Assembly (NCBI GenBank): GCA_963845755.1
Contig: CAWJTV010000011.1
Coordinates: 544,001 to 608,000, forward strand
DNA length: 64,000 bases
Direction: 5' to 3'
Source of the DNA: an uncultured Planctomycetota bacterium
GTDB taxonomy: Bacteria; Planctomycetota; Planctomycetia; Isosphaerales; Isosphaeraceae
The notes below the pieces were generated by a model. The model saw only the letters and a list, made by a program, of their open reading frames with translations, was not told the DNA's origin and made no database searches. Position 1 is the first letter of the stretch; every line of letters starts with the position of its first letter. The position numbers and the translations under genes were made by a program. This document shows, piece after piece, positions 10,101 to 45,908 of this stretch.

Positions 10101-10653
10101 CCGCAGCCTGATCCGACGTGCCCTGGGCGACCCCGCCGGCGCCGCGGCCGACGCCCGTCGGGCGGTGGCGCTGTTCGACGCCCTGCCGCCGCGGTCGGGC
10201 GAGCGAACGTTCTTGTCCGCGTGTGCCCACGCCGCGCTGGCCGGCCTGGCCGGTCGCGATGGCTCGGGCGTGGCGGCCGCCGAGGCAACGTCCGAGGCCG
10301 AGACGGCCGTGGCCCGGCTCCACAAGGCCGCCGGCGTGGGCTACCGCAACCCCGACGCCTACCGCACCGAGGACGCCCTCGACCCGCTCCGCGGACGGCC
10401 CGACTTCCAGTTGCTGATCATGGACCTGGCCATGCCGGCCGAGCCGTTCGCCGGCCCCCACCGAGACCCGGCGGGCGGCTGGGAGACCTCCGGTCCGGCC
10501 CGCGGCGGCGACTCTTCGGGTACCCGGAGACCCGTGCCTAGCGCGGCGCGTGCGCAACGCAACCGATCGGCGCTCTCAATTCACTTTTCGGCCACCTCGA
10601 GGGCGACCGAGTCCAGCCACGCGCAACCCACTCCGACCAGCGCCAGTCCGTAG
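7114..10653 (+). CDS. Ser/Thr protein kinase with TM segment and TPR repeats (true C-terminus probably near 10470)
   Basis: ARGGLGAVF, VALK, HRDIKPGN, VDWGLAK and YMSPEQ motifs, followed by TPR-like helical repeats and the family tail DALDPLRGRPDFQLLIMDLAMPAEPF. Confidence 0.92.
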   Translation: MAADADRHLLFGLLALQNGLIDQAQLVAAFQSWTRDKDRPLADHLVDLGYLDRAHCPLLEGLAAVHLARHGGNAEQSVAAIPAGKSTRESLARIGDPDLVGTLARVGPRSTLQDDDGDADRTASYSVGAATSDGQRFRVLRPHARGGLGAVFVALDTELHREVALKQILDHHADDRVSRQRFLLEAEVTGGLEHPGIVPVYGLGNYGDGRPYYAMRFIKGDSLKEAIEQFHADESLKNQPGRRSLELRKLLRRFTDVCNAIDYAHLRGVLHRDIKPGNIIVGKHGETLVVDWGLAKARGRADVAESSDERPLLPSSASGSAETLPGSALGTPAYMSPEQAAGELDRLSPRSDVYGLGATMYCLLTGKAPFENDDIGEMLRQVRKGEFPPPRAIDPAIDRALEAVCLKAMATKPEDRYGSCRALADDIERWMADEPVTAWSEPWTRTLLRWLTRHRVGVTAAAVAGLVALVGLAAVAATQAQGRAALEIKNRELADANAKVQARYDLAVDAIKTYYTGVSEDFLLREDKFKDLRNRLLKSAADFYGKLGALLGKEKDFVSRRALVASNFELADLTDKVGRKEDALAAHRAVLAARETLAAEPGTDAATKAEVGLSLTAIATLLTSTERTDEALATFRRAESLLAGLAESEPSARAALAACRIELGFLLYLTGKSAEALAVYKMALADQEALAAAHDASNDVRHGLAHTHRRIGVLLMNMDKLVDSETELRAAMAIYQKLADDNPDVIEFRSSLAYSHYLVATVLMKTHRPAVAEYRAALAIQQEVVADNPAVTSFRRFLAMSHLDVATALQFAGESSAAEAELRTARETLQKLADDNPDVTTFRMYLAQSYDSLSSLLSEEGKSAEAEVAARTAVAILRMVVDDSPDVGTYRFNLALSHNGHGWLLSQTGRPSEAEPVYREALAILQKVADEDPKVLSHRQNAANVGNNLSTVLRRLGRPAEAREQCERALTIMEDLAREDPGATRYRDGLAECYLSRSLIRRALGDPAGAAADARRAVALFDALPPRSGERTFLSACAHAALAGLAGRDGSGVAAAEATSEAETAVARLHKAAGVGYRNPDAYRTEDALDPLRGRPDFQLLIMDLAMPAEPFAGPHRDPAGGWETSGPARGGDSSGTRRPVPSAARAQRNRSALSIHFSATSRATESSHAQPTPTSASP

Positions 10654-12806
10654 TCGATCCGCTCCGCATCCTTGGGAACATCCCCGACCATCTCAAACAT
10701 TCGCCATTCGGGTGTCGTGATGGGCCGGTCGGCCATGTCATCCTCGAACGCCAAGGAAGCCGGGCCGAATCCTGGCTTCTGGATGCGTAACCACAGATGC
10801 GCCTGGTTCCCTGGACCGGCTACCTCCGTACGAACGGCCGCGCGCAGCTTGATCCGTTTCCCCTGGAATGGCTTCGCGTCGATCGTTTGCCCCAGACCTC
10901 CGAAAGTCTCTCCGTATCGTGGGCCGGGCTTCGGGCGGATCAGCGCGCATCGCTGACCGGTATGGGGATGATCTTCACTCGTCACTGCCTCATAGCTCAG
11001 ACCGCTAATCCCGGACGAGCCCGTCCAATCGGTCGGCTTCGTCCCCGGATCGCCGCTCTCGAAACCGAGGTTGGCGGGTGCGGCCAGTTTCTGGACCTTG
11101 GGACGCCCTCCCGCTGCGTTCGGTCGAGCGGAGGTCGTTTTCTCGACAAAGAGCAAGGCATCGTAAATCCGAGGTACCCTCGACGGCGAGAAAAACTGGC
11201 TCGCGGACTGCTCGGAGTAACCGGCCCCGATACTTCGGGTCGTGCGGGGCTGGTCGAACCAGGCCGCGACCGGTCCGTCCTTGGGTAGTTCTCGCAGATC
11301 GATCGCCGCCAGCGCCAGTCCACTCGCGGCCAGTATCGCATCGAGACTACCCTCGGGTGCCGGCTTGACCTGGAACGGACGCAGCCGACCAGTTCCGAAG
11401 GGCATCTCCACGGCTTGAAACGATCCCTGGTTAAAGGCGAAGCCAAAAACGACCATGTCGGTGCTGTACATCTTGCGCAGGTGATGGCCCATCCATTCCT
11501 GGCCACTGGCCACCGAGGTAGCCACGTGACCGTTATGCGCCCAGACCACCATTTTCGTGCCCGGTCCTTCGTGTTCGAGGATCCAACGAATGTTGTCAGC
11601 CATGGCCCGATCGCGAACCATAAACGTGTCCCCGGGGTTTTTCATGGCCAGGGCCTGGGCTAGGACCTGAGCGTGCTGCCGCGCGACGGCCAACTCGCTC
11701 TCGCTGGTCCGTTTGACGTAATCGGTTCTCTGCTGATCCAGAAGGTTCAGGAGCCCTTGCGCCGCGGTCATCACCGCCTGTTTCTTCGCCGGCGCGAGTG
11801 CGTCATACGACCTCGCGAGGAACGGGTTGGCCAGAGGCGAGAGTGCCTCTTTCGTCCCGCCTGGAAGCTGGGCATCGACCTTGGAAACGTAGGCCAGGGC
11901 GACTCTGGCCGCGCGGCCCGGGAACTGCGCGTCGAAGCCGTAGAACTTGACTTTCTTCTCATGACGCGGGTCGGCGTTGTAATTCCGCATCCAGCGGATC
12001 ATCTCGAGCACCTCTTCGGTGTCCCAGGTCCAGAAATACATCCCTGCCAGCGCGCTGGCGGGATCGCCTTTTTCGGTGAGAACGAACTCGTTGAGGTCGA
12101 AGGCTTCGGGCATCGTGGCCTCGATGCCGAAAACGGTGAATCCCATCTCGGAGACGAGGAACTCGAGCATCCTGTGCTTGAGTTGAAAGAACTCACGGGT
12201 CCCGTGCGTGGCCTCCCCGAGTGCCACCAACCGCGCCTCGCCGATCACCTTCTTGAGCGGCTGCATGTCCTCGAATCCGTGGCCGGCCTCCACACCCTTC
12301 AGACGAATCGCATGTTCCGCCAGCCATTTCTTGACTCCCTCGACCTGGGCCTTCTCGGCAGCCAGCCGCTCCGCGTATTGATCGGCCGTAAGCAACTCCT
12401 CGATTTTCACCTGGTAACCGCCGCGCTTCGCGGTCTTCTCGAGTGCGCGGATCTCCAGCCGGTAGTCGCCGGAGGCCGCTGCGACCACTTGAGCGGGTTC
12501 CGGTCCTTGATCGCCGTTGGGACTGTCCACTTCGACAATCCGTTTGCCGTCCGGGCCGAGGATCCTCACCACCACATCAATGCCTCGCTGATCGACGACC
12601 ACGTGGAGAAACTGACCGGCCTTCACGAAAACCTTGTAGTCATGAGCCTCGTGACCGGCCATGGTGCGCTCGATGGCCTTGCGTGGCTCGAGAGTGGTAA
12701 CGGTCTGGCTTGGCTCCGATGGCTGCTGCCCGCCCCGAATCCCGGGAGCGAACGATAGCATGGCAGCAACGAACATGGTGGCAAGCAAGGGAATGAGTCT
12801 GTCCAC
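10581..12806 (-). CDS. Erythromycin esterase family protein with signal peptide, N-terminal PPC-like domain and C-terminal CBM-like domain
   Basis: VALGEATHGTREFFQLKHRM, FYGFDAQ, RDRAMADN, WAHNGHV and YDALLFV motifs. The C-terminal module begins NLGFE. Confidence 0.88.
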   Translation of the reverse strand: MDRLIPLLATMFVAAMLSFAPGIRGGQQPSEPSQTVTTLEPRKAIERTMAGHEAHDYKVFVKAGQFLHVVVDQRGIDVVVRILGPDGKRIVEVDSPNGDQGPEPAQVVAAASGDYRLEIRALEKTAKRGGYQVKIEELLTADQYAERLAAEKAQVEGVKKWLAEHAIRLKGVEAGHGFEDMQPLKKVIGEARLVALGEATHGTREFFQLKHRMLEFLVSEMGFTVFGIEATMPEAFDLNEFVLTEKGDPASALAGMYFWTWDTEEVLEMIRWMRNYNADPRHEKKVKFYGFDAQFPGRAARVALAYVSKVDAQLPGGTKEALSPLANPFLARSYDALAPAKKQAVMTAAQGLLNLLDQQRTDYVKRTSESELAVARQHAQVLAQALAMKNPGDTFMVRDRAMADNIRWILEHEGPGTKMVVWAHNGHVATSVASGQEWMGHHLRKMYSTDMVVFGFAFNQGSFQAVEMPFGTGRLRPFQVKPAPEGSLDAILAASGLALAAIDLRELPKDGPVAAWFDQPRTTRSIGAGYSEQSASQFFSPSRVPRIYDALLFVEKTTSARPNAAGGRPKVQKLAAPANLGFESGDPGTKPTDWTGSSGISGLSYEAVTSEDHPHTGQRCALIRPKPGPRYGETFGGLGQTIDAKPFQGKRIKLRAAVRTEVAGPGNQAHLWLRIQKPGFGPASLAFEDDMADRPITTPEWRMFEMVGDVPKDAERIDYGLALVGVGCAWLDSVALEVAEK

Positions 12807-13167
12807 GTAGCCCTCCTACATGCGTCAAGGTCTGGAAACGCTCAAGGTTCTGCGGCCTTGCTGAGCTCAATGAAGTCAAACGGTGCGATCGATTATCGGC
12901 CCCGGGGTCCAGCTTGTCATTAGGCCTCGCTTTGAAGGATGGGAGGGCGAGAGGTTCAGCCCACTTTCCTTGTGGGCGGCCACCGCGAGCGCTACAGGGC
13001 GGTGTCCGAGTGACCTGTTCCAGAACAAGTAGTGTCTTCCTCCTCACGATCCCTGCTCCATGCGCATTTGGGAACCCGACGTTAGAGCGCCTCTCGGTTG
13101 GGTTGCGCACTGCGCATGGCGCGAGACGCGTGATCGATCCGAGCCCGAGGCCAAGGCGACGCCCTCC

Positions 13168-13480
13168 GGCGGCCCGAAGGGTCGCAGGAACCCAGCCCGG
13201 CGTGAGGAACGCTGACGAAATAAGTTCCCGAAGTCACTGACACCCACTCGTTCCCACGCTCCGCGTGGGAATGCCGTCTGCGACGCTCTGCGTCGTCGGC
13301 AAGACCGGGAAGTTATTTCGTCAGCGTTCCAAACGCCGGGACTCGGATACCCGCGCCTGCGCCGGCACCCTGAAGAGGTGCTGGAGGGTTTCCTGCGGCC
13401 CTTCAGGCCGCTGGGACCGGGGCTTGCACCTCGGACCCCGAGTTTCACCCGCGGCTGGGCTCCTGCGGCCAAAGGCCGCG
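13168..13480. repeat. Composite REP-like palindromic element
   Basis: GCGGCCCGAAGGGTCGCAGGAACCC at about 13169 recurs in inverted form at about 13387-13411 and 13455-13479. The hairpin CCCGGCGT..ACGCCGGG is split by an insertion. Confidence 0.7.
13206..13330. mobile_element. 125-bp MITE-like element with 25-bp terminal inverted repeats and an internal half-REP
   Basis: GGAACGCTGACGAAATAAGTTCCCG ... CGGGAAGTTATTTCGTCAGCGTTCC (24/25 match). The interior contains CTCGTTCCCACGCTCCGCGTGGGAATGCC. Confidence 0.7.
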
Positions 13481-13491
13481 GATGAGCTCTA

Positions 13492-13536
13492 TTGACAATC
13501 CGGAATCCACCGACATAATACAGACAGTCTGTCTGT
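13492..13536 (+). promoter_or_regulatory. Sigma70-type promoter and probable BlaI operator
   Basis: TTGACA-16 nt-CATAAT, followed directly by the palindrome ACAGACAG-T-CTGTCTGT, upstream of the blaI-like gene. Confidence 0.7.
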
Positions 13537-13568
13537 CTGTGATCATCAAGACCAGCAGGGGCGCCCTC

Positions 13569-13955
13569 ATGAAGAAGGAACCAGTCACCGAGGGGGAACT
13601 CTCGATCCTGGAAGTCATCTGGGAACAGGGAAGTCCAACCAGCCGCGAGATTGCGGCCGCGATCTACGAGAAGGTTTCCGACTCCAAGATGGCCTCGGTG
13701 CAAAAGCTGATCGAGCGGCTGGAAACGAAGGGCTACGTGAACCGCGATCGCTACGAACGGGCCCATCGCTTCGAGGCACGGGTGAGTCGGGAAGAGTTCC
13801 TGCGGCATCGCCTCCAGGGACTGGCCGATCGACTTTGCGACGGAGCCATCGTGCCGTTGGTGACGACACTGCTTCGATCGAAGAAAGGACTTTCCCGGAA
13901 GCAGGGAGAACAGCTCCGCCAGCTCATCGACGAGCTCTGGCCGTCGGATCAGTGA
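13569..13955 (+). CDS. BlaI/MecI/CopY family repressor
   Basis: TEGELSILEVIWEQGSPTSREI..VQKLIERLETKGYVNR..AHRF; lies directly upstream of an M56 gene. Confidence 0.92.
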   Translation: MKKEPVTEGELSILEVIWEQGSPTSREIAAAIYEKVSDSKMASVQKLIERLETKGYVNRDRYERAHRFEARVSREEFLRHRLQGLADRLCDGAIVPLVTTLLRSKKGLSRKQGEQLRQLIDELWPSDQ

Positions 13956-14124
13956 TCCTCGACATTCATTCCATTCGAGAGGTATCCCATGTACGCCTTC
14001 TGGGAAATCATTGCCAGTAATGCCGTGGTCGCGACGATCCTGGCGATCGGCGTCATGCTGCTGGGCCGCATCTGGAAGAACGCCGCCGCGGTTCATGCGC
14101 TCTGGGTCGTCGTACTGCTGAAAC

Positions 14125-15545
14125 GGGTGTGACCGACGATTGATGTAGCATATTATCGGAAACCGCCCAGGGTTCAGGCTGCCACCGGAAACCCGCAGCG
14201 GTCGATCTTCGACCAGAACTGGTCCCACCTCCCGGTCGTGTGGTTCAAGCAGCGTAGACTCAGCACCGCCGCCGCTCCCGACTCCTTCCATTTCATCCCC
14301 GAACCGCAGAGACGTTGCTTCACGATCACCTTGCAGGCGGCTTCGGTCACGCCACTGCCGATCGGCTCGTTGTTGGCGACCCGCGCCGCATAGTCCATCC
14401 GTCCCGCGGTCGATTGGTTGGTGAAGTAGGTGATGGCTCGTTGTACGTCCTCATCATCCTTGGCCCACGGCCGCACTTTCGCCAGCGACTTCAATTGCTT
14501 GAGGATCGTGGCCGCGCCTCCGGGTTCGTGCTTCAACGTGTGACAGCTCGCCTCCGTCCACGACCGACGCGTCGCGGGCTGGCCCCGGTACAGCACCGCC
14601 GCCGCCTTGCCCAGATACTCCGCAGCATGCCAGAAGTCCACGACCTGAGTGTCAGTGTACCGTCGGAGGAATTCCCAGTTCCCCTTGGCTCCGTCGGCGA
14701 TCCCGGCGTAGTGGGCCTGAGGATACTTCGCCTTCACCTGGGACACCTCCGCCTCCAAGCGACCCAGGAAGGTCGCCTTGCCGTACTCGGGCGTCGCCGC
14801 CAGGTAGATCGTGTGCTGCCGCTGGCCCGCGCCGTCGTAGAAGCTGATCGTCCCGACCATCGTCTCCCGCCAACCGTCCTCGCACATCAGCGCGCAGGTC
14901 CCGTCCAAGCTGAGGGCCACGGTCGTCGGGGGCGTGTCCATCGTGGGGAGGTGGTAACTCCAGTCTTCCTCCTTGACCAGCGCCACGGCGGCCACCGCGT
15001 CGGCGACGTCCTGGATCAGGCAGCGCGAGACGTCCCGGCCGTGGTTGTCGCGCAGATCGCGCCGGACTCGCGCCGAGCCGAATTCGGCGTACTTACTCGC
15101 GACCATCTTGGCGAACTTAGGGGTGGAGCTGACGATGATCCGGGCGTCACGATCCAGGGGGCAGTAGGTGGCTCCGCCCTGGGGACTCTGGTAGACGTGC
15201 CGTTGGACCGTGGCCATGCCATAGGGCGTCTGGTAATCCTTGGAGGACTGACCCTTGCTGGTCAACGTGACCGAGCCGACGGTGAGGGGAGAGCCGTCGG
15301 TGTCGAATTGCCGCAGTCCTTCCTCAGTGGCCAGGACACCGGCGGCGTTGAGTTGGTCCTGGAGCGTTTCCTCGAACTCGAGCATCGAGCGGTGGTAGGG
15401 GATGGTGATCTGGACGGTGAAACCCGCCTCAGTGCGGCTGATGATCTGTGCGGACATCGTCGGGCCTCCGTGAAGAGAGAAGAGAATCCCCCAAAATCTT
15501 ACTGAGAAAGCTCCTCAAACTCTACATCAATCGTCGGTCACACCC
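14125..15545 (-). mobile_element. Complete insertion sequence, ISKra4 family-like
   Basis: Perfect 24-bp terminal IR GGGTGTGACCGACGATTGATGTAG, flanking GCTGAAA duplication, and a single intact transposase. Confidence 0.9.
14174..15457 (-). CDS. DDE transposase, ISKra4 family
   Basis: SLDGT, IADGAKGNW, VDFWHAAEYL and IGSGVTEAACKVIVKQRLCGSGMKW motifs. Confidence 0.9.
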   Translation of the reverse strand: MSAQIISRTEAGFTVQITIPYHRSMLEFEETLQDQLNAAGVLATEEGLRQFDTDGSPLTVGSVTLTSKGQSSKDYQTPYGMATVQRHVYQSPQGGATYCPLDRDARIIVSSTPKFAKMVASKYAEFGSARVRRDLRDNHGRDVSRCLIQDVADAVAAVALVKEEDWSYHLPTMDTPPTTVALSLDGTCALMCEDGWRETMVGTISFYDGAGQRQHTIYLAATPEYGKATFLGRLEAEVSQVKAKYPQAHYAGIADGAKGNWEFLRRYTDTQVVDFWHAAEYLGKAAAVLYRGQPATRRSWTEASCHTLKHEPGGAATILKQLKSLAKVRPWAKDDEDVQRAITYFTNQSTAGRMDYAARVANNEPIGSGVTEAACKVIVKQRLCGSGMKWKESGAAAVLSLRCLNHTTGRWDQFWSKIDRCGFPVAA

Positions 15546-33399: not shown

Positions 33400-36300
33400 A
33401 TGACCATGAAGACCAACGAACATCCTCGAACAGGATCGAGCCGGGAGCCCGTCGTTCGCCGACCGGACTGGGTCGTCCTGATCGCCGCGATGTCTGCCCT
33501 GATCGCTCCGTCGCGCGCCACGGCGGACGACGAGGCTTTCATCATCACGCCGCCCGGCTTCACCCAACCGGGCCAGGCGAAGACAGCGATAGGTGAGAAG
33601 ACCGCCCGGCTCCGGATCACCGTCCGCGACCGCGCCACCGGCCGGCCGACACCCTGCCGGCTCAACGTCGTCGGGCCTGATGGCAACTTCTACCAGCCTG
33701 CGCCCGGTCCGCTCTCGCCCTACAGCCTGACCGGCCAGTGGCCCAGGACCGGCAAGGGGAACCGCGAGGGCAAGGCGCCGATCCGCTACCTCGGCCGGTT
33801 CTTCTACACGAGCGGAGCAATCGAGGTGGCCGTCCCCGCCGGGACCATGCGTATCGAAGTTTGGAAGGGGTTCGAGTATCGGCCCGTGGCAAAGACCATC
33901 GAGGCGGCCATCGGCCAGACAATCCCGGTTGACCTCGCGATCGATCGCACGGCTGCGATGGCACCGAGCGGGTATCACTCGGGCGACCTGCATCTGCACT
34001 TCCCCCGCAAGACCGAGGCCGACGACCGGGTCATCCTCGACCTGCTGGAAGCCGAGGACATCCAATTCGGTTCGATCCTCGCTTACAACGAACCGGCCGG
34101 ACCGTACAACGGCGTGATGGAAGCCATGGACGCGCCCCAGCTCCGCGGGTTGGGGAAAGCCTCGGTCGTCCGTCGCGGCGAAATCGCAATCGCATCGGGA
34201 CAAGAATATCGAAGCTCGACTTATGGTCATCTCAACCTATTCTGGCGCGATGACCTCGTGCTGAAGAGCCAGCAGGTGGATGCCAACAACTGGCCCCTGT
34301 ATGGCATCCTCGGCCGGGAAACCCGGCAGCACGGCGGCTTCGCCATCCACGCGCACGGCGGTTATGCCCAGGCGATCTATGCCGACTTCGTCCAGAAGGA
34401 CGTCAACGCCGTGGAATTGCTCCAGTTCGGCGTCTATCGCGGGATCGAGCTGACGGACTGGTACCGGATCCTCAACATCGGTTATCGATTTCCGTGCGTC
34501 GGCGCGAGCGACTACCCGGCCTGTCGCTACCTGGCCGATTGCCGGACATACGTCGATCTCGGAGCGAAATTCCTCCCCCCCTTACGGAGGAGGGGCCAGG
34601 GGGGATTGAACCCGCCGGAGCCTTCGACGCCGAGCGCCTCTGATCGGCCGACCCGAACAGTACCCCCCCATACCCCCCCTTCGCAAGGAGGGAGAAAAGG
34701 CGCGGGCGGCCGCGAATCACGGCGTGGCCGCAGACAACGCGTTCGCCGCCTGGCTCAAGGCCGCTGTCGAGGGCCGCAGCTTCGTCACCACGGGTCCGCT
34801 GCTGTTGCTCGAGGTGGATGGCGAACGCCCCGGCGGCATCCTCCGCAAGACCGGACCGGGGCCGCATCGCATGAAGGTGAATGTGCGCGCGGTGTGCGAG
34901 GTCGCGCCGATCCAGACCGTGCAGATCATCGTCAATGGCAAGGTCGTGCACGAGCAGGCCGTGCCGGCGGAGCAGGGCAGGGGGGTCTGGATCGACGTCG
35001 AGCAAACCCTCGACCTGAATCGCTCGTCGTGGATCGCGGCGCGGGCGTTCTCGAAGGCCCCCTCCGGGGCGCCCGACTCCGAGGCTCATACCAACCCGGT
35101 GTACGTCACCTTCGACGACAAGGCCCCCTACGACCAGGATTCGCTCGATCACCTGGTGACGCGGATCGACGAGCAGATCGCCGTGCACCGAAAGCGACGG
35201 TTTGATGAGAAGGCCCGCGTGCTCGATTATTTCCAGAAGTCGCGGGACATCCTGCTGAGGATTCGACGGAATGGCGGACTGCCGGCCGGAGGCGTCCCCG
35301 ACGCCTGGATCGCGGATACCACCGAGTCAATCGACGCCAGCCGGCGGAAGATCGCCGACGATCAGCTCGAGCACTTCCTCCAGGCCGAGCCAGCCGTCAC
35401 ACCACAGGATGCTTTGAAGACGTTCGAGACGGTGGATCGATTCCGCATGGAGCTGGTCGCGGCAGAGCCGATCGTGCAGAGCCCCGTCGCCGCGGCCTTC
35501 GATGCCGACGGTCACCTCTACGTCGCCGAGATGCGGGACTATCCCTACAAGCCCAGGGCCGGTAAGACGCCGCTGGGCACGGTGCGACTGCTGCGCGACA
35601 CCGACGGCGACGGCCGGTTCGACCAGAGCACGGTCTTCGCCGACGGCCTGCTCTGGGCGGCCGGAATTGCGCCGTGGAAGGGGGGCGTCTTCGTCACGGC
35701 GCCGCCGGACATCTGGTACCTGAAAGACACCAACGGCGACTTCCGGGCCGATGTGCGGACGAAGGTCTACACGGGATTCGGCACGCAGAATCAGCAGGCG
35801 ATGGTGAACAACCTGGCCTGGGGCCTCGATCACGTCATCTACGGCGCGGCGTCGGGCAATGGCGGAATGATTCGAGTGGCGGACGATCCCAAAGCGCCGG
35901 GGGTCTCGGTCGAGCACAGCGACTTCCGATTCGACCCGGTGAGTGGGGCGTTCGAACTGGTCTCGGGCAACAACCAGTTCGGCAACACGTTCGATGACTG
36001 GGGGAACCGGTTCACGTGCAATGAGTCGCACCCGCTCTCGCAGCCGGTCTTACCGCGCCGGGAGCTGGCGCGGAACCCGTACCTCGCCGTGCCTTCGGCG
36101 GTCCGGGACATCGCCGGGGGCTCGGTGCCGATCTTCCGGATCAGCCCGGTCGAGCGCTGGCGGCAGATCCGTTCGAGTCGACGGATCGCCTATAGCGAGC
36201 GGCCCACGGGATCGGCGGGAGTGAGCCACCACGTCGTCAACGCCGGCGCAGGCGCGACCGTCTATCGCGGCGGCGCCTACCCGGCGGAGTTCTACGGAAA

Positions 36301-38363
36301 CGTGTTCGTCGGCGACGCCCAGAATAACCTGATCCATCGGAGGATTCTTGTTCCTGATGGGCCAACCTTCCAGGCGGTCCGCGGCCCGCGCGAGCAGGCC
36401 ACGGAGTTCGTCCGCTCGTCGGACAACTGGTTCCGGCCCGTGAACTTCGTGAACGCGCCGGATGGTACGCTCTACGTCCTCGACATGAGCCGTGCGGTCA
36501 TCGAGGCAATTCATATCCCGCTCGACGTGGTCAAGCATCTCGACCTGAAGCGTGGGCGCGATCAGGGCCGGATCTACCGGATTGCGCCGCCGGGGTTCCG
36601 CTATACACGTCCGCCGCGCCTGAGCCAGGCTACGACGATCGAGCTGGTGGCCGCGCTGGCGCGGCCTGACGCCTGGTACCGCGACACGGCGCATCGCCTG
36701 ATCTTCGAACGCCAGGACCCGGCCGCGATCGAGCCGTTACGGAAGCTGTTGAGTCCGGCCAGAGCCGCATTCCCACCGGCACAGGTCAATGCGCTCTGGT
36801 CGCTGGAAGGATTGAAAGCGCTCAGGGATGATGATCTTGCCGTGGTCTTATCAGACCCCGTGCCGGAAGTCCGCGCCCAGGCGGTCGTGCTGGCCGCCGC
36901 GCGGCTCGATCGATCGCGGGCCTTGCTCGAGAAGGTCATGGACCTGGCCATTGACGTCGATTCGCGCGTGCGGTTCCGCGTCGCGCTGGCACTCGGTGAA
37001 ACGAACCGACCCACGTGCCGTATGCCGCTCTGGCGCGGATCGCCCGCATCGGGATGCGGCGAACCGCTGGATCCGCACCGCCGTGCTCAGCTCGTGCGCC
37101 GCGACGGCCGATCGGCTGTTCGTGGACCTCTGGACGAACCAGGCCCCGCCCACACCGGACGTCGCCGAGTTGCTGAAGCCGCTGGTGGAGATCGTCGGCG
37201 CGCGGAACCGACCCGAGGAGATCGGCCGCGTGCTCGATGTGCTGGCGGGCTCACAGGTCGCCTCGGCACTTGCGATGCGAGACGGGCTGGTCCTGTCCTT
37301 GGCCCGAGGCGTGCGGCGTTCGGGCGGACGGATTCCGATCGATCCGAAGTCGGCGCGGCCTGGGGTTGCGATGGTCGCGCGCTCGTTCCAGCGTGCCCGG
37401 GCCTTGACCCACGACGCGCACACGCCCGAGGCGGCACTCCTGACCGCGATCGACATATTGAGCACGCTCGACCCGGACGGATCGCATGCGGATTTGCAGG
37501 AATGGCTCGCACCGCAGCAGCCGCTGTCGGTGCAGGTCGCCGTGGTGCGGGCCATGGCCGAGGGCCGCGCGGCGAACCTGCCCGACATCCTGCTGCCCCG
37601 CCTGCGCACCTTCGAGCCGACGGTCCGCGCGGCGGCCATCCGGACCCTCTTGAGCCGCACCGATTGGACCAGGGCGCTGCTCCGCGCCATCCAGCCCGGC
37701 GCCGCGGGCGGGATCAGCCCCAGCCTGATCGAGCCGTCCGACCGGACGCCGCTGGTGAAGCATCGCGACCCCGAGATCGCCCGGCTGGCCAGGCCGTGTT
37801 CGGCCAGTCCGCAACGGGCTCCCGCGCCCCGAGTCATCGCCGACTACGCCTCGATCCTGCGGACCAAGGGTGACCCCGGCCGCGGTGCCAAGGTGTTCGA
37901 CCGCGAATGCAAGACCTGTCACAAGGTCAGCGACCGCGGATTCGCGCTCGGCCCCGACCTGACCGGCTCACCGTCGAGCGATTCCGCCGCGCTGATGGCC
38001 AACATCCTCGACCCGAATGCCAGCGTCCAGCCTGCGTATCTTCAATACATGGTGATTGACCAGAACGGCCGGACGTATTCAGGCATCATCGCAAATGAGA
38101 CGGCGACCAGCCTGACCCTCCGCCGCGGCGACGGCGCCGAGGACACCATCCTCCGTGCGCAGGTCGCCGAGATGGCCAGCACCGGGCTGTCGCTGATGCC
38201 CGAGGGGATCGAGAAGGCAATCACCAAACCCGAGATGGCCGACCTGATCGCCTTCCTGCGAGCCTCGCATCGCGGCGGCCCGGGAGAAGGGCCGGACGCC
38301 GACGACCGCGCGCGTCCGCTCGATATCGGGACCTTGCCGGGGCTGATCGAGCCGGATCATTGA
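33400..38363 (+). CDS. CehA/McbA-type metallohydrolase fused to a PVC-type dehydrogenase-like beta-propeller, HEAT repeats and a CxxCH heme domain (frameshifts near 34700, 37010 and 37800)
   Basis: SGDLHLH, EYRS..YGHL, GASD, GRSFVTTGP and AHTNPVYV; then FRMELVAAEP, LLRDTDGDGRFD, FDDWGNRF, WFRPV and GRIYRI; then CKTCH..GPDLT..SLMPEG..DLIAFL. Confidence 0.82.
34570..34696. repeat. REP-like inverted-repeat element inside the coding sequence
   Basis: TCCTCCCCCCCTTACGGAGGAGGGGCCAGGGGGG ... ACCCCCCCATACCCCCCCTTCGCAAGGAGGGAGAA. Confidence 0.75.
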
Positions 38364-38403
38364 GGCCGTTGCTCTCGCGGACGACGTGGCGTAGCATGAG
38401 TGT

Positions 38404-38444
38404 ATGCCGACCGTACTCCGAAGCGGGCCGTTCCGATTCTTCCC
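38404..38444 (+). pseudogene. N-terminal stub of a DUF4160-family gene
   Basis: MPTVLRSGPFRFF matches the typical DUF4160 start. It is cut off by a REP element and lies upstream of DUF2442, the usual partner. Confidence 0.65.
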
Positions 38445-38565
38445 CTCGTCCCACGCTCCCGCGTGGGAATGCCGTCCCGGACGCTCCGCGTCCCCGTCGG
38501 CGCCGAAGACCGCGACGCAGAGCGTCGACGACGGCATCCCACGCAAGAGCGTGGGAACGAGGGGA
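38441..38565. repeat. REP doublet (REPIN), CTCGTTCCCACGCTC type
   Basis: TCCCCTCGTCCCACGCTCCCGCGTGGGAATGCC ... GGCATCCCACGCAAGAGCGTGGGAACGAGGGGA; same family as 13247-13294. Confidence 0.88.
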
Positions 38566-38606
38566 GTTCGCCGTCTGACCGCGTGATTGAAGAAGACGGT
38601 CCTGAA

Positions 38607-39023
38607 TTGGGGGCTGATTCCGCGGTTGAAAGCCGGGTCGCCTTGGCCACCGGCGTGATGGTCAGCGAGGATACTCTCTCCGTGGAGCTAGCCGACGGCC
38701 GCACCATCGCCGCACCGCTGGCCTGGTATCCACGCCTGTCGCATGCCACAGCCGAGGAGCGGAATTCCTGGCGGCTAATCGCCAACGGCCAGGGAGTCCA
38801 CTGGCCAGCCCTCGATGAAGACATCAGCCTCGTCAATCTCCTCGCGGGTCAACCCTCGGCCGAAAGCCAGAGTTCGTTCAAGAAATGGCTCGCGAGCCGG
38901 GCCAAACCACGCCCCGGAACAAAGTGGCCGAGAGCCTACATCACGTCAGTGGTGGCTTCTCGAGGAATCCGATGCGGTAGATCCGAGGAACCGAACGCGG
39001 TGAGCACAGTTAGACGCCGTTAA
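38607..39023 (+). CDS. DUF2442 family protein (putative antitoxin); start uncertain
   Basis: LSVELADGRTIAAPLAWYPRL..AT.EER..W..GQGVHWPALDEDISL..LLAG. Confidence 0.85.
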   Translation: MGADSAVESRVALATGVMVSEDTLSVELADGRTIAAPLAWYPRLSHATAEERNSWRLIANGQGVHWPALDEDISLVNLLAGQPSAESQSSFKKWLASRAKPRPGTKWPRAYITSVVASRGIRCGRSEEPNAVSTVRRR

Positions 39024-39052
39024 GTACCGGCGAGGAAAGGATGGGACACACC

Positions 39053-39445
39053 ATGGAGATGGAGCGGTTCGAGGCGGAGATCAAGGATCTCTCCCAGCGC
39101 GTCAGCAAACTGGAGCCCGGACGAAAGGGATGGCGGGTCGCTCGCCGCAACCGAGGCCTGCCGATCCTTCGACACATCATCAGGGTTCCGAGGACCCGGC
39201 AGGACAAGGGCAACCCACCGACTGGCCTGGGCTCGAGACGATCGAATTCCGATCGGTCGCGGCCTTCGAGCAGGATCTCGAAAGGCTCGACGCACCGCGA
39301 GCACCAACGTGTCATCGAGACCATCAATGCCAAGTCGCCGCTCTGGCTGAAGGATCGTCGGAGAGCGGAGAAGGAGTTCCTTCGTCCGTTCGTCTTCCGG
39401 CTTCGCGGTGGACTGGAATCGTCGCTGTATGACGATTCCGGCTGG
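39053..39445 (+). pseudogene. Frameshifted, truncated hypothetical gene with a RelE-like pattern
   Basis: Joining frames gives IEFRSVAAFEQDLERLD..EHQRVIETIN..LRGGLESSLY, which resembles a RelE/ParE N-terminal half. Confidence 0.35.
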
Positions 39446-39617
39446 AAAGGCGCAGAGGAATCATCCTGGCGGTGGATGACGATCCCATCTTCGGCCAGGT
39501 GATTGTTACCCTGTGAGGGTCGTGACGAAGCGTGTCAGAAAGGCGGCATACGACGAGCTTGCAGAGCTGCTGTATCCTGGACAAGTCCTCGAAGTTCAGA
39601 AGCTGGAAGGTCAATGA

Positions 39618-39998
39618 ATGGCCAGGATCAAATGCTTGAAGGACGAGTACGGGATCATCCGAGAGGCCGCGAAGATTCTACCTGATGATGCCTTGAAGGC
39701 TGCCTTCCCCGATGCGCTCGGCGAACTCGAGGACAATGATTGTTATGTGAAGAAGTCGTTCCCTCAGACCCGGCTGCACCGGATTACTGGGATCAAGCAG
39801 GCCATCTTTCGTGCCGACATCGACAGGATTTCGGGCTGGAGGTTGCACCTGCAGATGGGCAAGGATACTTGCATCCATCTCAAGGATATCATCGAGGGTC
39901 AGAAGCACGATGACGTGGTTCAGGTGATCAAGGCCAAGAAAGAGCCTCTCCAAGATAGAATATGCACTCAGCCTCCTCGTTTATCGGGCGAATCCCCC
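39618..39998 (+). CDS. About 110-aa basic hypothetical module, in frame with the downstream STAND gene
   Basis: Natural-looking protein (TRLHRITGIKQAIFRADIDRISGWRLHLQ..HDDV) with GGAAGG upstream; composition is more AT-rich than its neighbours. Confidence 0.6.
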
Positions 39999-42900
39999 AT
40001 GAACGAACTCCGCGTCCTCTTCACCCCTGACAAAGACAAGGGCTATCTCGCCCACCTCGCCGATGCCGGCGACAACAAACTGGGCGTCGAAGTCCCGTTC
40101 ACACCCTTCCTGACCGAGGACGATTACGAGAACCTGTGCTGGTACCTGGAAGAGTACATGGACCTGCCCGACGGCGGCGCGGTCACCCGGGCGCGGGGCA
40201 TCGAAAAAGACCTCGACCGCTGGGGCCACACGCTGCACGACGCCCTGTTCGCCGCCAGGGAGAACCGCGACCTGCTGAAGAGCCTCCTCGCCGCTTCAGA
40301 GCCGCGCGAGCTGACCCTGGCCACCCAGGACCCGATGCTGCTGCGGCTCCCCTGGGAGCTGATGGCCGACGGCGCGGGCCGGCTGGCGCAACGGGTGTCC
40401 GTGCGCCGGCAGTTGGAAGAACCGGAGAAATCCGCGACGGTCGCGGCCAAGCTTCCCCTGCGGATCCACTACATCGTCAGCCGGCCGACCGATGCGGGCT
40501 TCATCGATCCCCGGTTCACCACCAAGGCACTCTTCGACGCGCTCGACCCGCTCGGGGGCAGCGTGCGGGTGGATTTCTGCCGCCCGCCCACCGTGGCGCG
40601 CATGGAGGAGCTGCTCCGCGACGGCCAGCATGCCAGCGACCCGTACGACCTCGTCCACTTCGACGGCCATGGCACGTTCTTGCCGCATTCGCAGATCGGC
40701 GCATTGTGTTTCGAGCAACCCGACGATGGTTCGGACGTCTCGAAGACCGACCTCGTCGAGGCCGAGCGGCTGGGCAACCTCCTGGCGAAGTATCGGGTTC
40801 GTCTCGTCGTGCTGGAGGCATGCCGTAGCGGCACTGTGGGGAAGTCCGCCGTCTTCCGTTCGGTCGCACCCAGGTTGATCAAGGCGGGCGTAAGCAGCGT
40901 GCTCTCGATGAGCCATGCCGTCCACGTCGAGGCTGCAAGACTGCTGCTCGACCGCTTCTACCGCGAACTGGTGCGCGGGACCACCATCGGCCATGCCGTG
41001 GCCCAGGCCCGCGGCGCCTCGACGTCCACCCCAGCCCGCTGGCTGGAATCCGGTCCGGGAGCCTTGACCATCACCCTGGCGGACTGGTTCCTGCCCCACC
41101 TCTACCAGCGCGGTGTGGATGATGCACTCGTCCCGCCCGATGCCGCCGAACAGCCGCCCGTGCGAGAGTTCGACATCTTCCTCAGCCACAATCACAACGA
41201 CTCGGACCGCGTCGAGGCGCTCGCCCGCTTACTTGTGGAAACGCACGGCCTGCGAGTCTGGCTCGACAAGTGGGAGTGCGGGCCTGGCGGACTAGAGCCG
41301 CAATGCGAGATCGGTATCAAGAACAGCCGTTTCACGGTTGTCGTCACCTCGCAGGACGCCCTTAAGTCGAGGTGGGTGCGGTGGGAAATCAAGAAGCACA
41401 ACCAGCTCAATCCCGATGGCGACCGCCTCATCCCGGTCAAATTTGAGCCGCTGAAACTTCCGCCCAAGTTGGATGGTCTGCTCTGGGTGGACTTCACCGA
41501 TCCCGCCCGTGACGTCGACAACGCCGCGATCCTCGCCCGGCTCATCCGCAGTGCCGACGCCGAGGACGCCCGTCGCCGTCGCAGGTTCCGCAGCCCGGCA
41601 CAGCGGCCCGAGGAACCCGGCCGATTCCCACCGCCGCCGCAATACAGTTTCCACGGCCGGGCGCGGGAGCTCCACATTTTGGAGCGACGATTCCGCACCG
41701 AGCGCGGCATCGTGCTGCATGCCATGGGCGGAATGGGCAAGACCGCGCTGGCCACCGAGGCAGCCCACTGGTGGACGCGCAGCGGCCTGTTCCACGATGG
41801 CGCCTGCTTCCTCAGCTTCGAGCAATTCGCCAGCGCCGACCGCGTGATGCAAGTCCTCGGCACCTACCTCGCCGGGCCGAAGTTCGAGCAGCTCCCCGCC
41901 GTCGAGCAGCGCCGCCGAGCCATCGAGCTGTTCCAGCAACACGCCGTGCTCATGGTCTGGGACAACTTCGAGAGCGCCCTGCCGGAGTTCGAAGACCCGG
42001 CCAGCCCCTACACCGACGACGAGCGCCGCCGCCTCGCCGAGCTGTTCCGCGACCTCACCACCGGCGAAGGCCAGGGCCGACTGCTTGTCACCTGCCGGCC
42101 CGGCGACACCGGCCTGCCCGGGGCCGGACGATACGAACTCCACGGCCTCGAACCCGCCGACAGCCTGTGGCTGCTGTCGCACATCCTGAAACGCGATGGC
42201 CTGACCTTCAACGATCCCCGGTTCGCCCGCGACCGGCTCGATCCCCTGCTGCGCGATCTGGCACACCATCCACACTCACTCGAGCTCGTTGGCCCGTACC
42301 TGCGCATCGCTCACGCCGGAGGCTATCCGGGCCGACCTCGGTAAGATCGTGGCGGAGGCCAAGCAGGATGCGCCGGAGGGCCGCAACCAATCGCTGTTCG
42401 CCTCCCTGGAGTTCTCCCGCCGCCATCTCAGCCCCGCCGCCCGCGCGGCGCTCCCCTGGCTCGGCCTGTTCCGCGGCGGGGTGTTTGAGATCAATCTGCT
42501 CGACGTGAGCCAGCTCGACCCGGCCGCCTGGGAATCCATCCGCCGGGAGCTGCAAGCCATCGCCCTGGTGCGGCCGGAGGACGACATCCAGATCACCGGC
42601 CGCCTTTTTCTGCGTTTCCACCCCACCCTCGCCTCCGCCGCGGCCGACGCCGCCCTGGCGCAGCAGCCCGAGACCCGCCGGCGCTTCATCGACGTCTATT
42701 ATGCCCTCAAGCGGGCGCTGGACCAGGCACTGAACGGCTCCCAATCGCGTACTGCGCTGGCAATCCTGGACCGCGAGGAGGCGAACTACCGCACCGCCGT
42801 CCACTGGGCCTTGGCCGATCGGCAATTCCGGGCCGCCGCGGCGCTGGGCGACACGTTTCGCGACTATCTGCAAATGTCCGGCCGCCTCCGCGAACGCGAT

Positions 42901-44361
42901 GCCTGGGTGCAGTGGCTGAAGGACGTAGTGACCCAGCAGGGCTTTACCCGGGAAGCCGCCACCTACGAACGGCAGCACGCCTACACGCGGTTTACCCAGG
43001 GCGATCCGCAGGGCGCGGTAGAGCAGCTCCAGGCCCTCATCGAGCGCCTCCGCCACACCACGGAGTTCGATCCCGCGTTTCAACTGGCCTTGGCGATTGG
43101 GGACTTGGGCAGGATCTTGTACCTCAGCGGTGCTCCGACCCAGGCGATCCGCATCCTGCGGGAATCCATCGGGCTCTGGGAGGCTCTGGTAGAGAAAACC
43201 GGTGGCCAGCCCTGGGAGACGCTGTTGTCCATGCCGGACCACGCCAAGGCCGCGGCCGAACTGGGGAACCTCTCCGCCACGATGGGCGATTTGGCCAATG
43301 CCCTGAGGGAAGCTGGTCAATACGACGAGGCCCTGGTCGTGGCGGAGAAGGTTCTGGGGATTCAACAAACTCTGGGCAACCAGCGCGAAGTCGCGACCGG
43401 CCACATCCAGTGCGCCCAGATCCTCATGGCGGCGGGCCGCTACGACGAGGCCGATGCCCGCTACGACCTGGCCCTGGCCGCCGCACGCCAGGCCGGGGAC
43501 AAGGAACAGGAGGGAACGACCCTCCAGCATCAGGGTTTCCTCGCCGACAACCGCAATCAACTCGGCCGCGCCATTCGACTTTACCAGCAGGCGCTCCGGC
43601 TCTTTCAGGAGGCGGGCGATCAGGGCTCGATGATGCGGACCTACAACCTCTTCGGCGAGGTCGAACGGAAGGCGGGCCGCCTGGCCGAGGCGCGGGCCTG
43701 GTACGAGAAGTCCCGCGAGCTGGCCGGGCAGTTGAAGGATCAGGTCGGCCTTGGCCAGGCCGCCCAGAACCTCGGCATCGTCTGTCAGATCGAAGGCGAT
43801 GCCGCCCGCGAGCGGGGCGACGAGCCGGCGGCCCGGCGGCACTACGAGGCCGCCCGCCAATCCGTGGAGGAAAGCTTGCGAATCAGGCAATCCCTCGGCA
43901 ACAAGCCCGATGAAGCCGGCTCGTTGAGTCAGCTCGCCCGCATCCACCTGCGCCTCGGCGACCTCGCCGCCGCCGCGCACCACGCCCACGCAGCCCGCCA
44001 GATCCGCGAATCCCTCGGCCTCCTGGATGTCTGGAGGAACTACGACACCCTCTCCGAGATCGCCCAGGCCCGCGGTGATGCAGCCGCCGCTAGCGAGTCG
44101 GCGCAGAACGCGCGATGCCGTGCTCGCAGAAGCCAAACGCCGCGCCCACGGTCTGGCCAAGTAGGGTGCTCTGCGAGCACCGAATCCCCGTGTCAAAACG
44201 ATTGGTGCTCACAGAGCACCCTACAAACCGGCTTCGGCGATGGCTCGTTCCCCGCGTTCGCCGTCGGCCAACTCCCGCCGATCCCCCACGGCCTGCCGGC
44301 CGAGCTTCGCCAGTGGCTGGAGGAGTTGACGCAACCCATCCGAGACGCGCCGCGGGGATGA
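39999..44361 (+). CDS. CHAT protease-TIR-STAND NTPase-TPR protein (frameshift near 42308; 3' end uncertain after about 44100)
   Basis: LPWELM, VHFDGHG and VVLEACRS (CHAT); FDIFLSHN..VWLDKWE..SRWVRWEI (TIR); FHGRAREL, MGGMGKT and VWDNFES (STAND); C-terminal TPRs. Confidence 0.88.
44161..44224. repeat. GTAG-type REP doublet
   Basis: GTAGGGTGCTCTGCGAGCACCGAATC ... GATTGGTGCTCACAGAGCACCCTAC. Confidence 0.8.
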
Positions 44362-44472
44362 GGGCGCGAAGGCAAGCCGATTGTTGGGTGCGGGTCGCTT
44401 CACCGGCAAAATCGGCAATGATCGCAATAACGGCAAAGACGGCAGACCTTGCCACAATGAGGCTCGTCCGCT

Positions 44473-45127: not shown

Positions 45128-45908
45128 ATGAACACAACCCCCACGACCCCATGGAATACCAGCCTCTACGACGACAAGCATTCGTTCGTCTGGAAGCATG
45201 GGGCCGCGCTGCTCGATCTTCTGGTACCAAAGCCGGGCGAGCGGATCATCGACCTCGGCTGCGGCACGGGTCATCTGACGACCAAGATTGCGGAGGCCGG
45301 GGCCGAGGTCGTCGGCATCGATTCCTCATCCGAGATGGTCGCAGAGGCGCGGAGCCTCTATCCCAACATTCGTTTCGAAATCGCCGATGCCCGCGACTTC
45401 GCGTTCGCTGAGCCGTTCGACGGGGTGTTCTCCAACGCCGTGCTCCACTGGGTCAAGGAGCCCGAGAAGGCCATCGCCTGCGTGCAAGAAGCCCTGAAGC
45501 CGGGCGGTCGGTTCGTGGCGGAGTTCGGCGGGCGGGGAAATGTCAAAGCGATCGTCTCAGCCCTCGATGCGGCATCCCGCGCGATCGGCCTCGGAGCCTG
45601 GGAACATCCCTGGTACTACCCCGGCGTCGGCGAGTATGCTCCGCTGCTCGAACGTGCGTGGGCTGGAGGTGACCCACGCGTTCCTCTTCGACCGCCCGAC
45701 TCCTCTGGAAGGCGAACAGGGCCTGCGAGACTGGGTCAAGATGTTCTGCGGCAGCCTCCTGGGCCGCGTACCGCCTGCCGATCATGAGGGCTTCTTCCGG
45801 AATGTCGAAGAGGTCGCCCGGCCGACGCTCTATCGCGACAGTGGGTGGTTTGCCGATTACCGACGCCTGCGTATCGTGGCACGCAGGACCGACGATCTCG
45901 AGACCTGA
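45128..45908 (+). CDS. Class I SAM-dependent methyltransferase (trans-aconitate methyltransferase-like; frameshift near 45660)
   Basis: IIDLGCGTGHLT, GIDSS, FDGVFSNAVLHWV, GGRFVAEFGG and WFADYRRLR. Confidence 0.9.

Follow-up and report, generated by a model that had tools for sequence, protein, structure and literature searches.

A CHAT-TIR-STAND-TPR protein of an uncultured planctomycete as a candidate single-gene NLR-like sensor with two enzymatic domains

Bacterial, plant and animal innate immunity have two main executioner modules in common, caspase-like proteases and TIR domains. Can both be placed under one NLR-type switch within a single bacterial gene, and what would such a gene do? 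The question is raised by a locus in a 64,000-nucleotide stretch of DNA (hereafter the window, numbered from its first letter) from an uncultured Planctomycetota bacterium (contig CAWJTV010000011.1, positions 544,001 to 608,000), for which an original prediction, made from the sequence, had proposed an NLR-like STAND protein with a CHAT protease and a TIR domain in tandem at 39618-44361. Our analysis indicates that the finding is real and that this interpretation was largely right; the gene model had to be corrected, and the architecture proved to be widespread. The most likely explanation, which we favour on balance, is that window positions 39999-44164 encode one member of a family of single-gene NLR-like sensors with two proximity-activated enzymes. 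This guarded grading applies jointly to the gene, its architecture, its mechanism and the state of this copy.

The locus holds two overlapping open reading frames (ORFs) on the plus strand, which lie in different frames (39618-42344, 908 amino acids; 42289-44361, 690 amino acids). The order of domains, an N-terminal domain followed by CHAT, TIR, a STAND NTPase and TPR repeats, is real, since Pfam matches and sequence motifs stand at the corresponding places. The first ORF matches CHAT (residues 203-472, 88 bits against a cut-off of 24), TIR_2 (residues 520-637, 81.7 bits against 28, with ThsB_TIR also matching; E values for both in Table 1), NACHT (residues 699-831, E 1.1e-6, 29 bits against 26.7) and AAA_16 (2.2e-6), and the second ORF matches TPR_12 (1.3e-26), TPR_10, TPR_MalT and other TPR models. 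The motifs HFDGHG and LEAC of the CHAT domain begin at 40656 and 40812, WVRWE of the TIR domain ends at 41385-41387, and MGGMGKT and VWDNFE of the NTPase begin at 41724 and 41955. In the following, residues of the protein are counted from the methionine at 39999. The CHAT residues H224, G225 and C275, the TIR residue E463, the GGxGKT motif (G577, G578, G580, K581 and T582), D655 and E658 are invariant in all 30 aligned relatives, which are 52-85% identical. The proposed order and the catalytic motifs of CHAT, TIR and Walker A/B, which had been described as present, are thus borne out by Pfam on both ORFs, by fold models and by this invariance. In a separate alignment of the TIR domain (A2), Glu463 is kept in 20 of 21 rows, and the exception is the closest orthologue (L011), which has Gln.

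Structure models agree with these assignments. A model of the TIR segment alone (41145-41573) reached a predicted local distance difference test score (pLDDT) of 88.6 and a predicted template modelling score of 0.84, and matches the TIR domains of MyD88, Hydra TRR-2, SARM1, AbTir and SPARTA with template modelling scores of 0.74-0.83; the TIR fold expected for 41165-41560 was therefore recovered. Its best Foldseek matches are MyD88 assemblies. By sequence profile, the nearest solved structures are AbTir and PdTIR (2-4e-12, versus about 3e-6 for MyD88), and Glu463 aligns with the Glu of AbTir WTNYELD and of PdTIR WPQKELD, which we take to be the catalytic Glu of AbTir, an NAD+-cleaving enzyme. 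AbTir, PdTIR and TcpB/BtpA are the closest solved TIR sequences, but in these short proteins the TIR domain is accompanied by a coiled coil or another N-terminal part and is not fused to an NLR.

A larger model of 769 residues had a pLDDT of 75.4, which fell to about 31-34 in the linker between the TIR and STAND domains (residues 519-553). Its CHAT part was matched by Foldseek to SAVED-CHAT (8tl0), Csx29/TPR-CHAT and separase (E 1e-8 to 5e-5, identity 10-19%), and a profile search found no solved CHAT relative at E<=1e-3. The protein shares the protease fold and the His/Cys dyad of clan CD CHAT proteases with SAVED-CHAT, Csx29 (Craspase) and separase; control of these three comes from a cyclic-oligonucleotide sensor, a CRISPR effector and securin, respectively, whereas here the protease is fused to a STAND NTPase. 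The TIR and NTPase part aligns to chains of the plant TIR-NLR protein (TNL) RPP1 over 446-451 columns. Assignment to the STAND class rests on the Walker A/B motifs, the fold alignment to the NB-ARC of RPP1 and the Pfam NACHT and AAA_16 matches, and both a NACHT and an NB-ARC type are compatible with it. The layout is the tripartite one of STAND proteins, with CHAT and TIR as effectors, the NTPase, and C-terminal TPR repeats. In a profile search the sensor region matches the TPRs of LGN/Pins and kinesin light chain, and the Roq1 TIR is matched as well. The likeness to plant TIR-NLR resistosomes (RPP1 and ROQ1) thus lies in the TIR domain directly N-terminal to the NTPase; the present protein differs from them in having TPR rather than leucine-rich repeats, an additional CHAT protease and a bacterial origin.

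Conservation is spread over the whole protein. Mean pairwise column identity is 0.62 in the N-terminal domain, 0.74 in CHAT, 0.70 in TIR, 0.71 in the TIR-STAND linker, 0.76 in the NTPase, 0.73 in the helical/winged-helix part, 0.62 in the TPR region and 0.60 in the tail. Within the linker, D520, A521, D523, A524, R528, F530 and R531 are nearly invariant in the 30 relatives.

Where does the gene begin? The closest full-length homologue among the matches listed (P0004, 1,473 amino acids) is 84% identical to the first ORF from Met128 onward, which pairs with residue 1 of P0004, and the protein alignment runs without a gap over the frame break, between LELVGPYLR and SLTPEAIRADLG, into the second ORF at 74%. 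The listed homologues span only about 85% of the query and all begin at MxELRVLF, and matches in the representative library likewise start at query residue 128. Because these homologues begin at residue 128 of the ORF, sequence comparison places the true start of the NLR gene at 39999. The start at 39618 given by the original prediction does not hold, as 39618-39998 corresponds to a separate gene of 112 amino acids in a genome of the same genus (G001). The resulting gene model is summarized in Table 1.

Table 1. Features of the CHAT-TIR-STAND-TPR locus in window coordinates.
Feature	Position	Strand	Basis
Small upstream ORF, 127 codons, continuous in frame with the NLR gene; outside the family	39618..39998	+	Homologue starts; separate gene in G001
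N-terminal beta/alpha domain, residues 1-75, always paired with CHAT	39999..40223	+	ATG, MNELRVLF; P0004 alignment from residue 1; pLDDT ~90 over residues 1-40
CHAT caspase-like protease domain	40224..41033	+	Pfam CHAT, E 8e-25; dyad His224 and Cys275; Foldseek
TIR domain with Glu463 (WVRWE)	41175..41528	+	Pfam TIR_2, E 7.7e-23; domain model
Arg-rich TIR-STAND linker (SADAEDARRRRRFRSPA...FPPPPQYSFHGRA), conserved, predicted disordered	41529..41657	+	pLDDT ~31-34; column identity 0.71
STAND NTPase module up to winged-helix motif HPHSLELVGPYLR; Walker A GGMGKT 41727-41744, Walker B VWDNFE 41955-41972	41658..42308	+	Pfam NACHT, AAA_16
Single extra base, +1 frameshift, window-specific	42309	+	Absent from L011, L023, L041 and G001
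Helical/TPR sensor region, frame +1 relative to the start	42310..44108	+	74% identity to P0004 from residue 773 onward; Pfam TPRs
Second single extra base, window-specific	44109	+	Absent from L011, L023, L041 and G001
REP-like repeat unit, 67 nucleotides, two hairpins (44165-44181, 44204-44220), TAG 44162-44164	44161..44227	.	Genome repeat count; absent here in G001, L011, L023 and L041
Remnant of ancestral C-terminal tail (GFGDG...LPPIPHGLPAELRQWLEELTQPIRDAPRG) with 54- and 21-nucleotide deletions	44228..44361	+	Nucleotide and protein alignments

The architecture is not confined to this locus. A word-indexed protein search, in which 8,000 candidates were scored, returned 678 matches at E<=1e-3. 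CHAT and TIR_2 are both present in all 120 matches listed (one of which is the window's own product), and the homologues in this list share 67-84% identity, most of them with a length of 1,389-1,556 amino acids; the rarity that had been implied for this combination therefore gives way to a widespread family. A library of representatives at 50% identity yielded 18,337 matches at E<=1e-3 and 905 at E<=1e-30, and among the matches listed only P0100 (1,483 amino acids, annotated from Aquincola sp. S2), P0125 and P0126 are full-length representatives that match over residues 128-897. We surveyed the architecture of 36 representatives of at least 1,000 amino acids, drawn from the top 63 of 150 listed matches. 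This survey comprised 22 CHAT-(NTPase)-TPR proteins without TIR or any other extra domain, seven proteins with TIR before CHAT, three with CHAT before TIR, three with another domain (subtilase, helix-turn-helix or kinase) and one N-truncated TIR-TPR piece. About 35 variable residues lie between the boundary motifs DWFxPxLYQ and FPPxPxYxFHGRAxEL in relatives that lack a TIR domain or carry it first, and in the present family the TIR domain lies inside this linker, between the motifs DWFLPxLYQ and FPPxPxYxFHGRAxEL. These alignments indicate that the TIR domain is an insertion into the CHAT-STAND linker of the commoner CHAT-STAND-TPR scaffold, as the original prediction had supposed. The TIR-first proteins thus share the scaffold, the pair of enzymes and the DWFxPxLYQ and FPPxPxYxFxGRAxEL motifs, but carry the TIR domain at the N-terminus, while here it stands between CHAT and the NTPase and is followed by the conserved Arg-rich linker. 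Owing to this insertion, it directly precedes the NTPase, as in plant TNLs. The same genome also contains a CHAT-NTPase paralogue without TIR (G000:C1:135566-137331; L002, L004 and L005), which aligns to the window's protein in three pieces at 27-35% identity. Full-text searches, which covered the articles themselves, turned up no publication in which a CHAT-TIR-STAND-TPR protein is named or tested; the supplementary tables of Kaur 2020, Dyrka 2020 and PMC13581612 may list the architecture.

The family has a broad but patchy distribution. Contigs from one genome per species contained 49 loci, which belong to at least six phyla, including Acidobacteriota (Thermoanaerobaculia and Holophagales), Planctomycetota, Thermodesulfobacteriota (Syntrophobacteraceae), Pseudomonadota (Sulfuricellaceae and Chromatiaceae), Verrucomicrobiota and Entotheonella. 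Some of the loci belong to contigs 4-8 Mb long, and three copies occur in a single Holophagales genome. Closer to the source genome, among 30 relatives, the gene is present in the one genome of the same genus that was included (1/1); among other genomes of the same family one of 17 has a match, which is 33% identical and limited to the CHAT region, and none of 12 genomes of the same class has any. In a 19-row tree, the window pairs with L011 (support 99), the ten rows from Acidobacteriota cluster together (97), only short branches (0.04-0.08) separate the phylum groups, and Planctomycetota appear in at least three places; the long branches of rows L019 and L032, which reflect crude ORF picking, are unreliable and were disregarded. 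The ratio of nonsynonymous to synonymous substitution rates (dN/dS) is 0.22-0.37 between the window and five homologues and 0.23-0.26 among the homologues, row L009 having been dropped because its frame was wrong (27 stops). Against the Acidobacteriota or Syntrophobacteraceae copies, the window shows a dS of 0.59-0.78 and a dN/dS of 0.22-0.29. Taken together, the tree, its short branches, the low dS and the patchy distribution indicate that the gene has passed between phyla in a few fairly recent transfers, under purifying selection throughout. Neither of two collections of mobile elements contained a close relative: the best match among 72,556 plasmid records was 33% identical, with no record covering at least 80% of the query, and 50,697 phage records gave one 28% match confined to CHAT.

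The mechanism that we propose follows from what is established for STAND/NLR proteins, TIR NADases and caspase-family proteases. The TPR region would bind a ligand and thereby release autoinhibition, and the NTPase would then drive oligomerization. The resulting clustering would activate both the TIR and the CHAT domain, each of which is expected to need self-association. The TIR domain may act as an AbTir-like NAD+ glycohydrolase or cyclase, and the caspase-like CHAT protease may cut cellular proteins or its own linker. Loss of NAD+ together with proteolysis would lead to growth arrest or cell death, either as abortive-infection immunity or as another form of regulated cell death. Members of the family are probable cell-suicide sensors. 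Modelling of two copies of residues 1-385, as a probe of CHAT self-association, gave a score of 0.00 in a trial that had no control runs.

How sound is the copy in the window? We called lesions by nucleotide alignment with four homologous genes, namely L011 (at the same locus of a Planctomycetota metagenome-assembled genome, MAG, 10001-14433), L023, L041 and the same-genus G001. The window alone has one additional base each at 42309 and 44109, a two-hairpin segment in place of about 57 nucleotides of tail-coding sequence and, beyond that segment, in-frame tail deletions of 54 and 21 nucleotides. The original prediction, one reading frame with a likely read error near 42308, was accordingly right about a single base at 42309, but the picture of a lone frameshift misses the second extra base, the REP-like unit at 44161-44227 and both tail deletions.

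The hairpin motif GGTGCTCNNNGAGCACC of the REP-like repeat occurs 136 times in the genome, versus 0 occurrences of a reversed control, and the whole unit has 80 genome matches, with hairpins about 39-41 nucleotides apart. The repeat family also occurs at G000:C1:60089-60230 and G000:C11:541195-541334, and some of its copies are arrayed in tandem. In the ancestral frame, the TAG within the unit removes the C-terminal tail. At least eight homologues, 1,389-1,394 amino acids long, end naturally at ...RRAGGGGG, where the ancestral frame of the window meets this TAG; read in that frame, the window protein would number about 1,385 amino acids and thus be a short form, close in length to the natural ones. 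In consequence of the tail lesions, the previously proposed gene end at 44361 is only the end of an ancestral tail remnant beyond the TAG and not a clean end of the gene. A reading of the TAG as an ancestral nonsense mutation common to L011 was rejected, because it lies inside the REP-like unit and is missing in G001. The tail of L011 has in-frame TAGs of its own and one frame change, from decay or sequencing error.

The REP-like insertion and the tail deletions are unlike consensus errors, and we regard them as real. For the extra bases at 42309 and 44109, assembly error is, with moderate confidence, more likely than mutation, because neighbouring genes are also frameshifted. The upstream gene for a DUF7133-HEAT-cytochrome c protein occupies three frames in the window (34264-34551, 34742-37012 and 37062-38360), while its orthologue in the syntenic locus L043 is an uninterrupted ORF of 1,318 amino acids, and the downstream methyltransferase gene (45230-45905) is split into two frames, with a break near 45655-45660 by comparison with L043 and L011. 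Three frame changes in two neighbouring conserved genes within 12 kb suggest an indel-prone assembly. Both G001 and L011 lack either extra base, and the G001, L023 and L041 versions of the gene are themselves full of single-base indels. The source genome measures 14.27 Mb in 49 contigs and is 87.88% complete.

Some observations speak against an intact gene disturbed only by assembly. Neither extra base lies in a homopolymer, and contigs from the public sequencing run that contains 5% of the sampled words reach neither 42309 nor 44109: three contigs cover only 40718-40918, 40725-40743, 43248-43265 and 44221-44396. In addition, the TIR Glu is replaced by Gln in L011 (WVQWQID) and the L011 tail contains stop codons, a hint that the gene is decaying in this lineage. 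The strongest alternative is that the frameshifts are real mutations and that this copy is a decaying, dead pseudogene of a family that may function elsewhere. Five window-specific lesions in one gene, together with the fusion to the upstream small ORF, fit such decay, as do the position of the extra bases outside homopolymers, an insertion and deletions untypical of consensus error, the syntenic L043, which keeps only about 190 nucleotides of the gene, the state of L011, and a dN/dS that is highest, at 0.37, between the window and L011. We nevertheless regard a pseudogene as possible rather than probable: the frameshifts in neighbouring conserved genes point to assembly, the frames are open between the breaks, are 74-84% identical to P0004 and keep all catalytic residues, and the truncation falls where the natural short forms end.

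Does the single-gene sensor that we favour act in antiviral defence? We infer an immune role, and several results weigh against it. PADLOC gave no whole-protein match and nothing over the NTPase; its matches at E<=0.01 are to single domains (PDC-S66, SAVED_TIR, ThsB and SAVED_CHAT). All NCBIfam matches, including a weak one to HetF, are far below their cut-offs, and neither PADLOC nor NCBIfam yielded a match to a family-specific Avs or bNACHT model. Clustering of homologues with defence genes, a possibility raised along with the original prediction, was not apparent: 2 of 86 nearest-neighbour ORFs at 18 loci match PADLOC at E<=1e-8, and both matches are generic, to a cysteine-desulfurase-like protein and a HEAT-repeat protein. 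The scan relied on crude ORF picking and on PADLOC models centred on well-studied phyla. The gene stands alone; we found no conserved partner gene within 5 kb and no flanking ORF cluster common to more than three of 27 loci. The TPR sensor is not hypervariable (column identity 0.62 versus 0.70-0.76 for the enzymatic and NTPase domains), and such mildly lower conservation is unusual for an arms-race receptor. Finally, our full-text literature searches found no experiment on any member of the family.

These results lend some weight to the alternative that the protein is not an anti-phage sensor but a regulated cell-death, stress or developmental switch, which responds to a conserved cue from within the cell or from the environment. 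Conservation of the sensor between phyla is high, no defence genes were seen alongside at the 18 loci, and most members of the family come from soil and sediment lineages with large genomes (Acidobacteriota, Planctomycetota, Thermodesulfobacteriota and Entotheonella). Regulatory roles belong to CHAT-TPR proteins such as HetF (here a weak NCBIfam match) and the anti-sigma factor DdvA (here a fold match). We consider such a switch unlikely in view of the patchy distribution within the genus, family and class, the low dS between phyla (0.6-0.78), and the loss of the gene from L043, which would be expected of an accessory and transferable gene, the usual kind in conflict systems; in addition, the combination of TIR and STAND is a hallmark of immune proteins.

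A further alternative concerns the relation between the two enzymes, which might form a cascade rather than act in parallel. In this case, as in type IV Thoeris, the TIR domain would make an ADP-ribose-derived signal, and this signal would activate CHAT within its own molecule or in one nearby. In type IV Thoeris, a TIR protein and a caspase-family protease serve cell-death immunity; here such a pair is fused. According to the preprint describing that two-gene system, the TIR protein activates the caspase-like protease through N7-cADPR, and both active sites are needed (Rousset et al. 2024, bioRxiv 10.1101/2024.10.24.620036). The same preprint describes an operon in which a short TIR protein is the sensor and the protease has a separate putative C-terminal signal-binding domain (bioRxiv 10.1101/2024.10.24.620036). 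The joining of TIR and CHAT on the present scaffold in both orders (three with CHAT and seven with TIR first, of 36) is consistent with a cascade. We judge it improbable, as no additional ligand-binding domain is seen next to CHAT here in the Pfam matches or the model, and as the 22 of 36 relatives without TIR suggest that the CHAT lineage is independent of a TIR signal. The present proteins also differ from type IV Thoeris in being encoded by one fused gene, in having a STAND-TPR sensor and in lacking a conserved neighbour across 27 loci.

It is equally improbable that the protein is a self-cleaving NLR, in which CHAT cuts the Arg-rich linker after the TIR domain, between SADAEDAR and RRRR, once the STAND module oligomerizes. 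The predicted disordered linker is as conserved as the TIR domain itself (0.71 versus 0.70) and so calls for an explanation of this kind, and the site presumably fits the separase-type ExxR rule. If true, self-cleavage would free a CHAT-TIR double enzyme from the sensor and make activation irreversible and the effector diffusible. The weakest alternative, that the TIR domain is a non-enzymatic oligomerization scaffold like that of MyD88, agrees with the MyD88 assemblies found as best Foldseek matches but is very improbable given the Glu at the catalytic position in all 30 relatives and a sequence nearer to AbTir and PdTIR than to MyD88.

The surroundings of the gene show a variable locus. Its neighbours in the window are a DUF2442 gene, a small cassette and the genes for the methyltransferase, a cytochrome P460-like protein and a bestrophin-like protein. 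Two loci from Planctomycetota MAGs share synteny with the window, and one of them, L011, carries the NLR gene at the same place with 82% nucleotide identity. In the other, L043 (9993-14469), the first ~190 nucleotides of the gene are followed by about 4.3 kb of other DNA, which includes ECF-sigma-like ORFs (Sigma70_r2, 5.5e-12); since other DNA stands there in place of the NLR gene, we regard the locus as a variable spot. The DUF2442 gene lies directly upstream (38400-39023, Pfam 2.6e-19) and is conserved in L043 (9633-9962); members of the DUF2442 family are often one half of small two-gene cassettes.

Between the DUF2442 and NLR genes lies the small cassette, which comprises ORF 39130-39432 or 39041-39502 in addition to 39618-39998. 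The region 38938-39990 is missing in L043 and present in G001, and this insert of about 1 kb is single-copy in the source genome. In G001, the counterpart of 39618-39998 is the separate gene of 112 amino acids, which ends at a stop of its own (L062 748-1086); an ORF of 93 amino acids (L062 466-747) abuts it on the upstream side, and a spacer of about 135 nucleotides separates it from the NLR start. In the window, homology to this small gene ends 13 nucleotides before its stop codon, which is lost, the spacer is shorter, and the ORF joins the NLR gene. Atlas leads for 39618-39998 (0.96-0.98) are to small proteins, one of which is named 'cytotoxic translational repressor of toxin-antitoxin', and Pfam and NCBIfam had no match to the small upstream ORFs. 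From these leads, 39618-39998 looks like a RelE/ParE-type toxin of a two-gene cassette, and the region 38938-39990 is probably toxin-antitoxin-like.

Among known systems, the Avs (AVAST) and other bacterial NLR-like STAND proteins are built alike, with an N-terminal effector, a STAND NTPase and a C-terminal TPR-like sensor in one polypeptide. In Avs, ligand-driven oligomerization assembles the effector, as stated in an article that also treats Avs sensors together with caspase-bearing Apaf-1 orthologues (Nature 2026, PMC13581612). Unlike Avs, the present protein has two tandem enzymatic domains instead of one, and neither a whole-protein PADLOC match nor a defence-island context at 18 loci. 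Bacterial NLRs frequently carry TIR or CHAT at the N-terminus (Dyrka et al. 2020 preprint), and caspase-like and TIR effectors have been described on STAND and related systems (Kaur et al. 2020, 2021).

For experiments, an intact homologue is a better choice than the copy in the window, which is truncated by the REP-like element and either frameshifted or mis-assembled. The family places both executioner modules under one NLR-type switch, with catalytic residues conserved over at least six phyla. It therefore offers a compact system in which to ask whether the two activities work in parallel, in series or by self-cleavage, what ligand the TPR sensor recognizes, and how such genes move between phyla.

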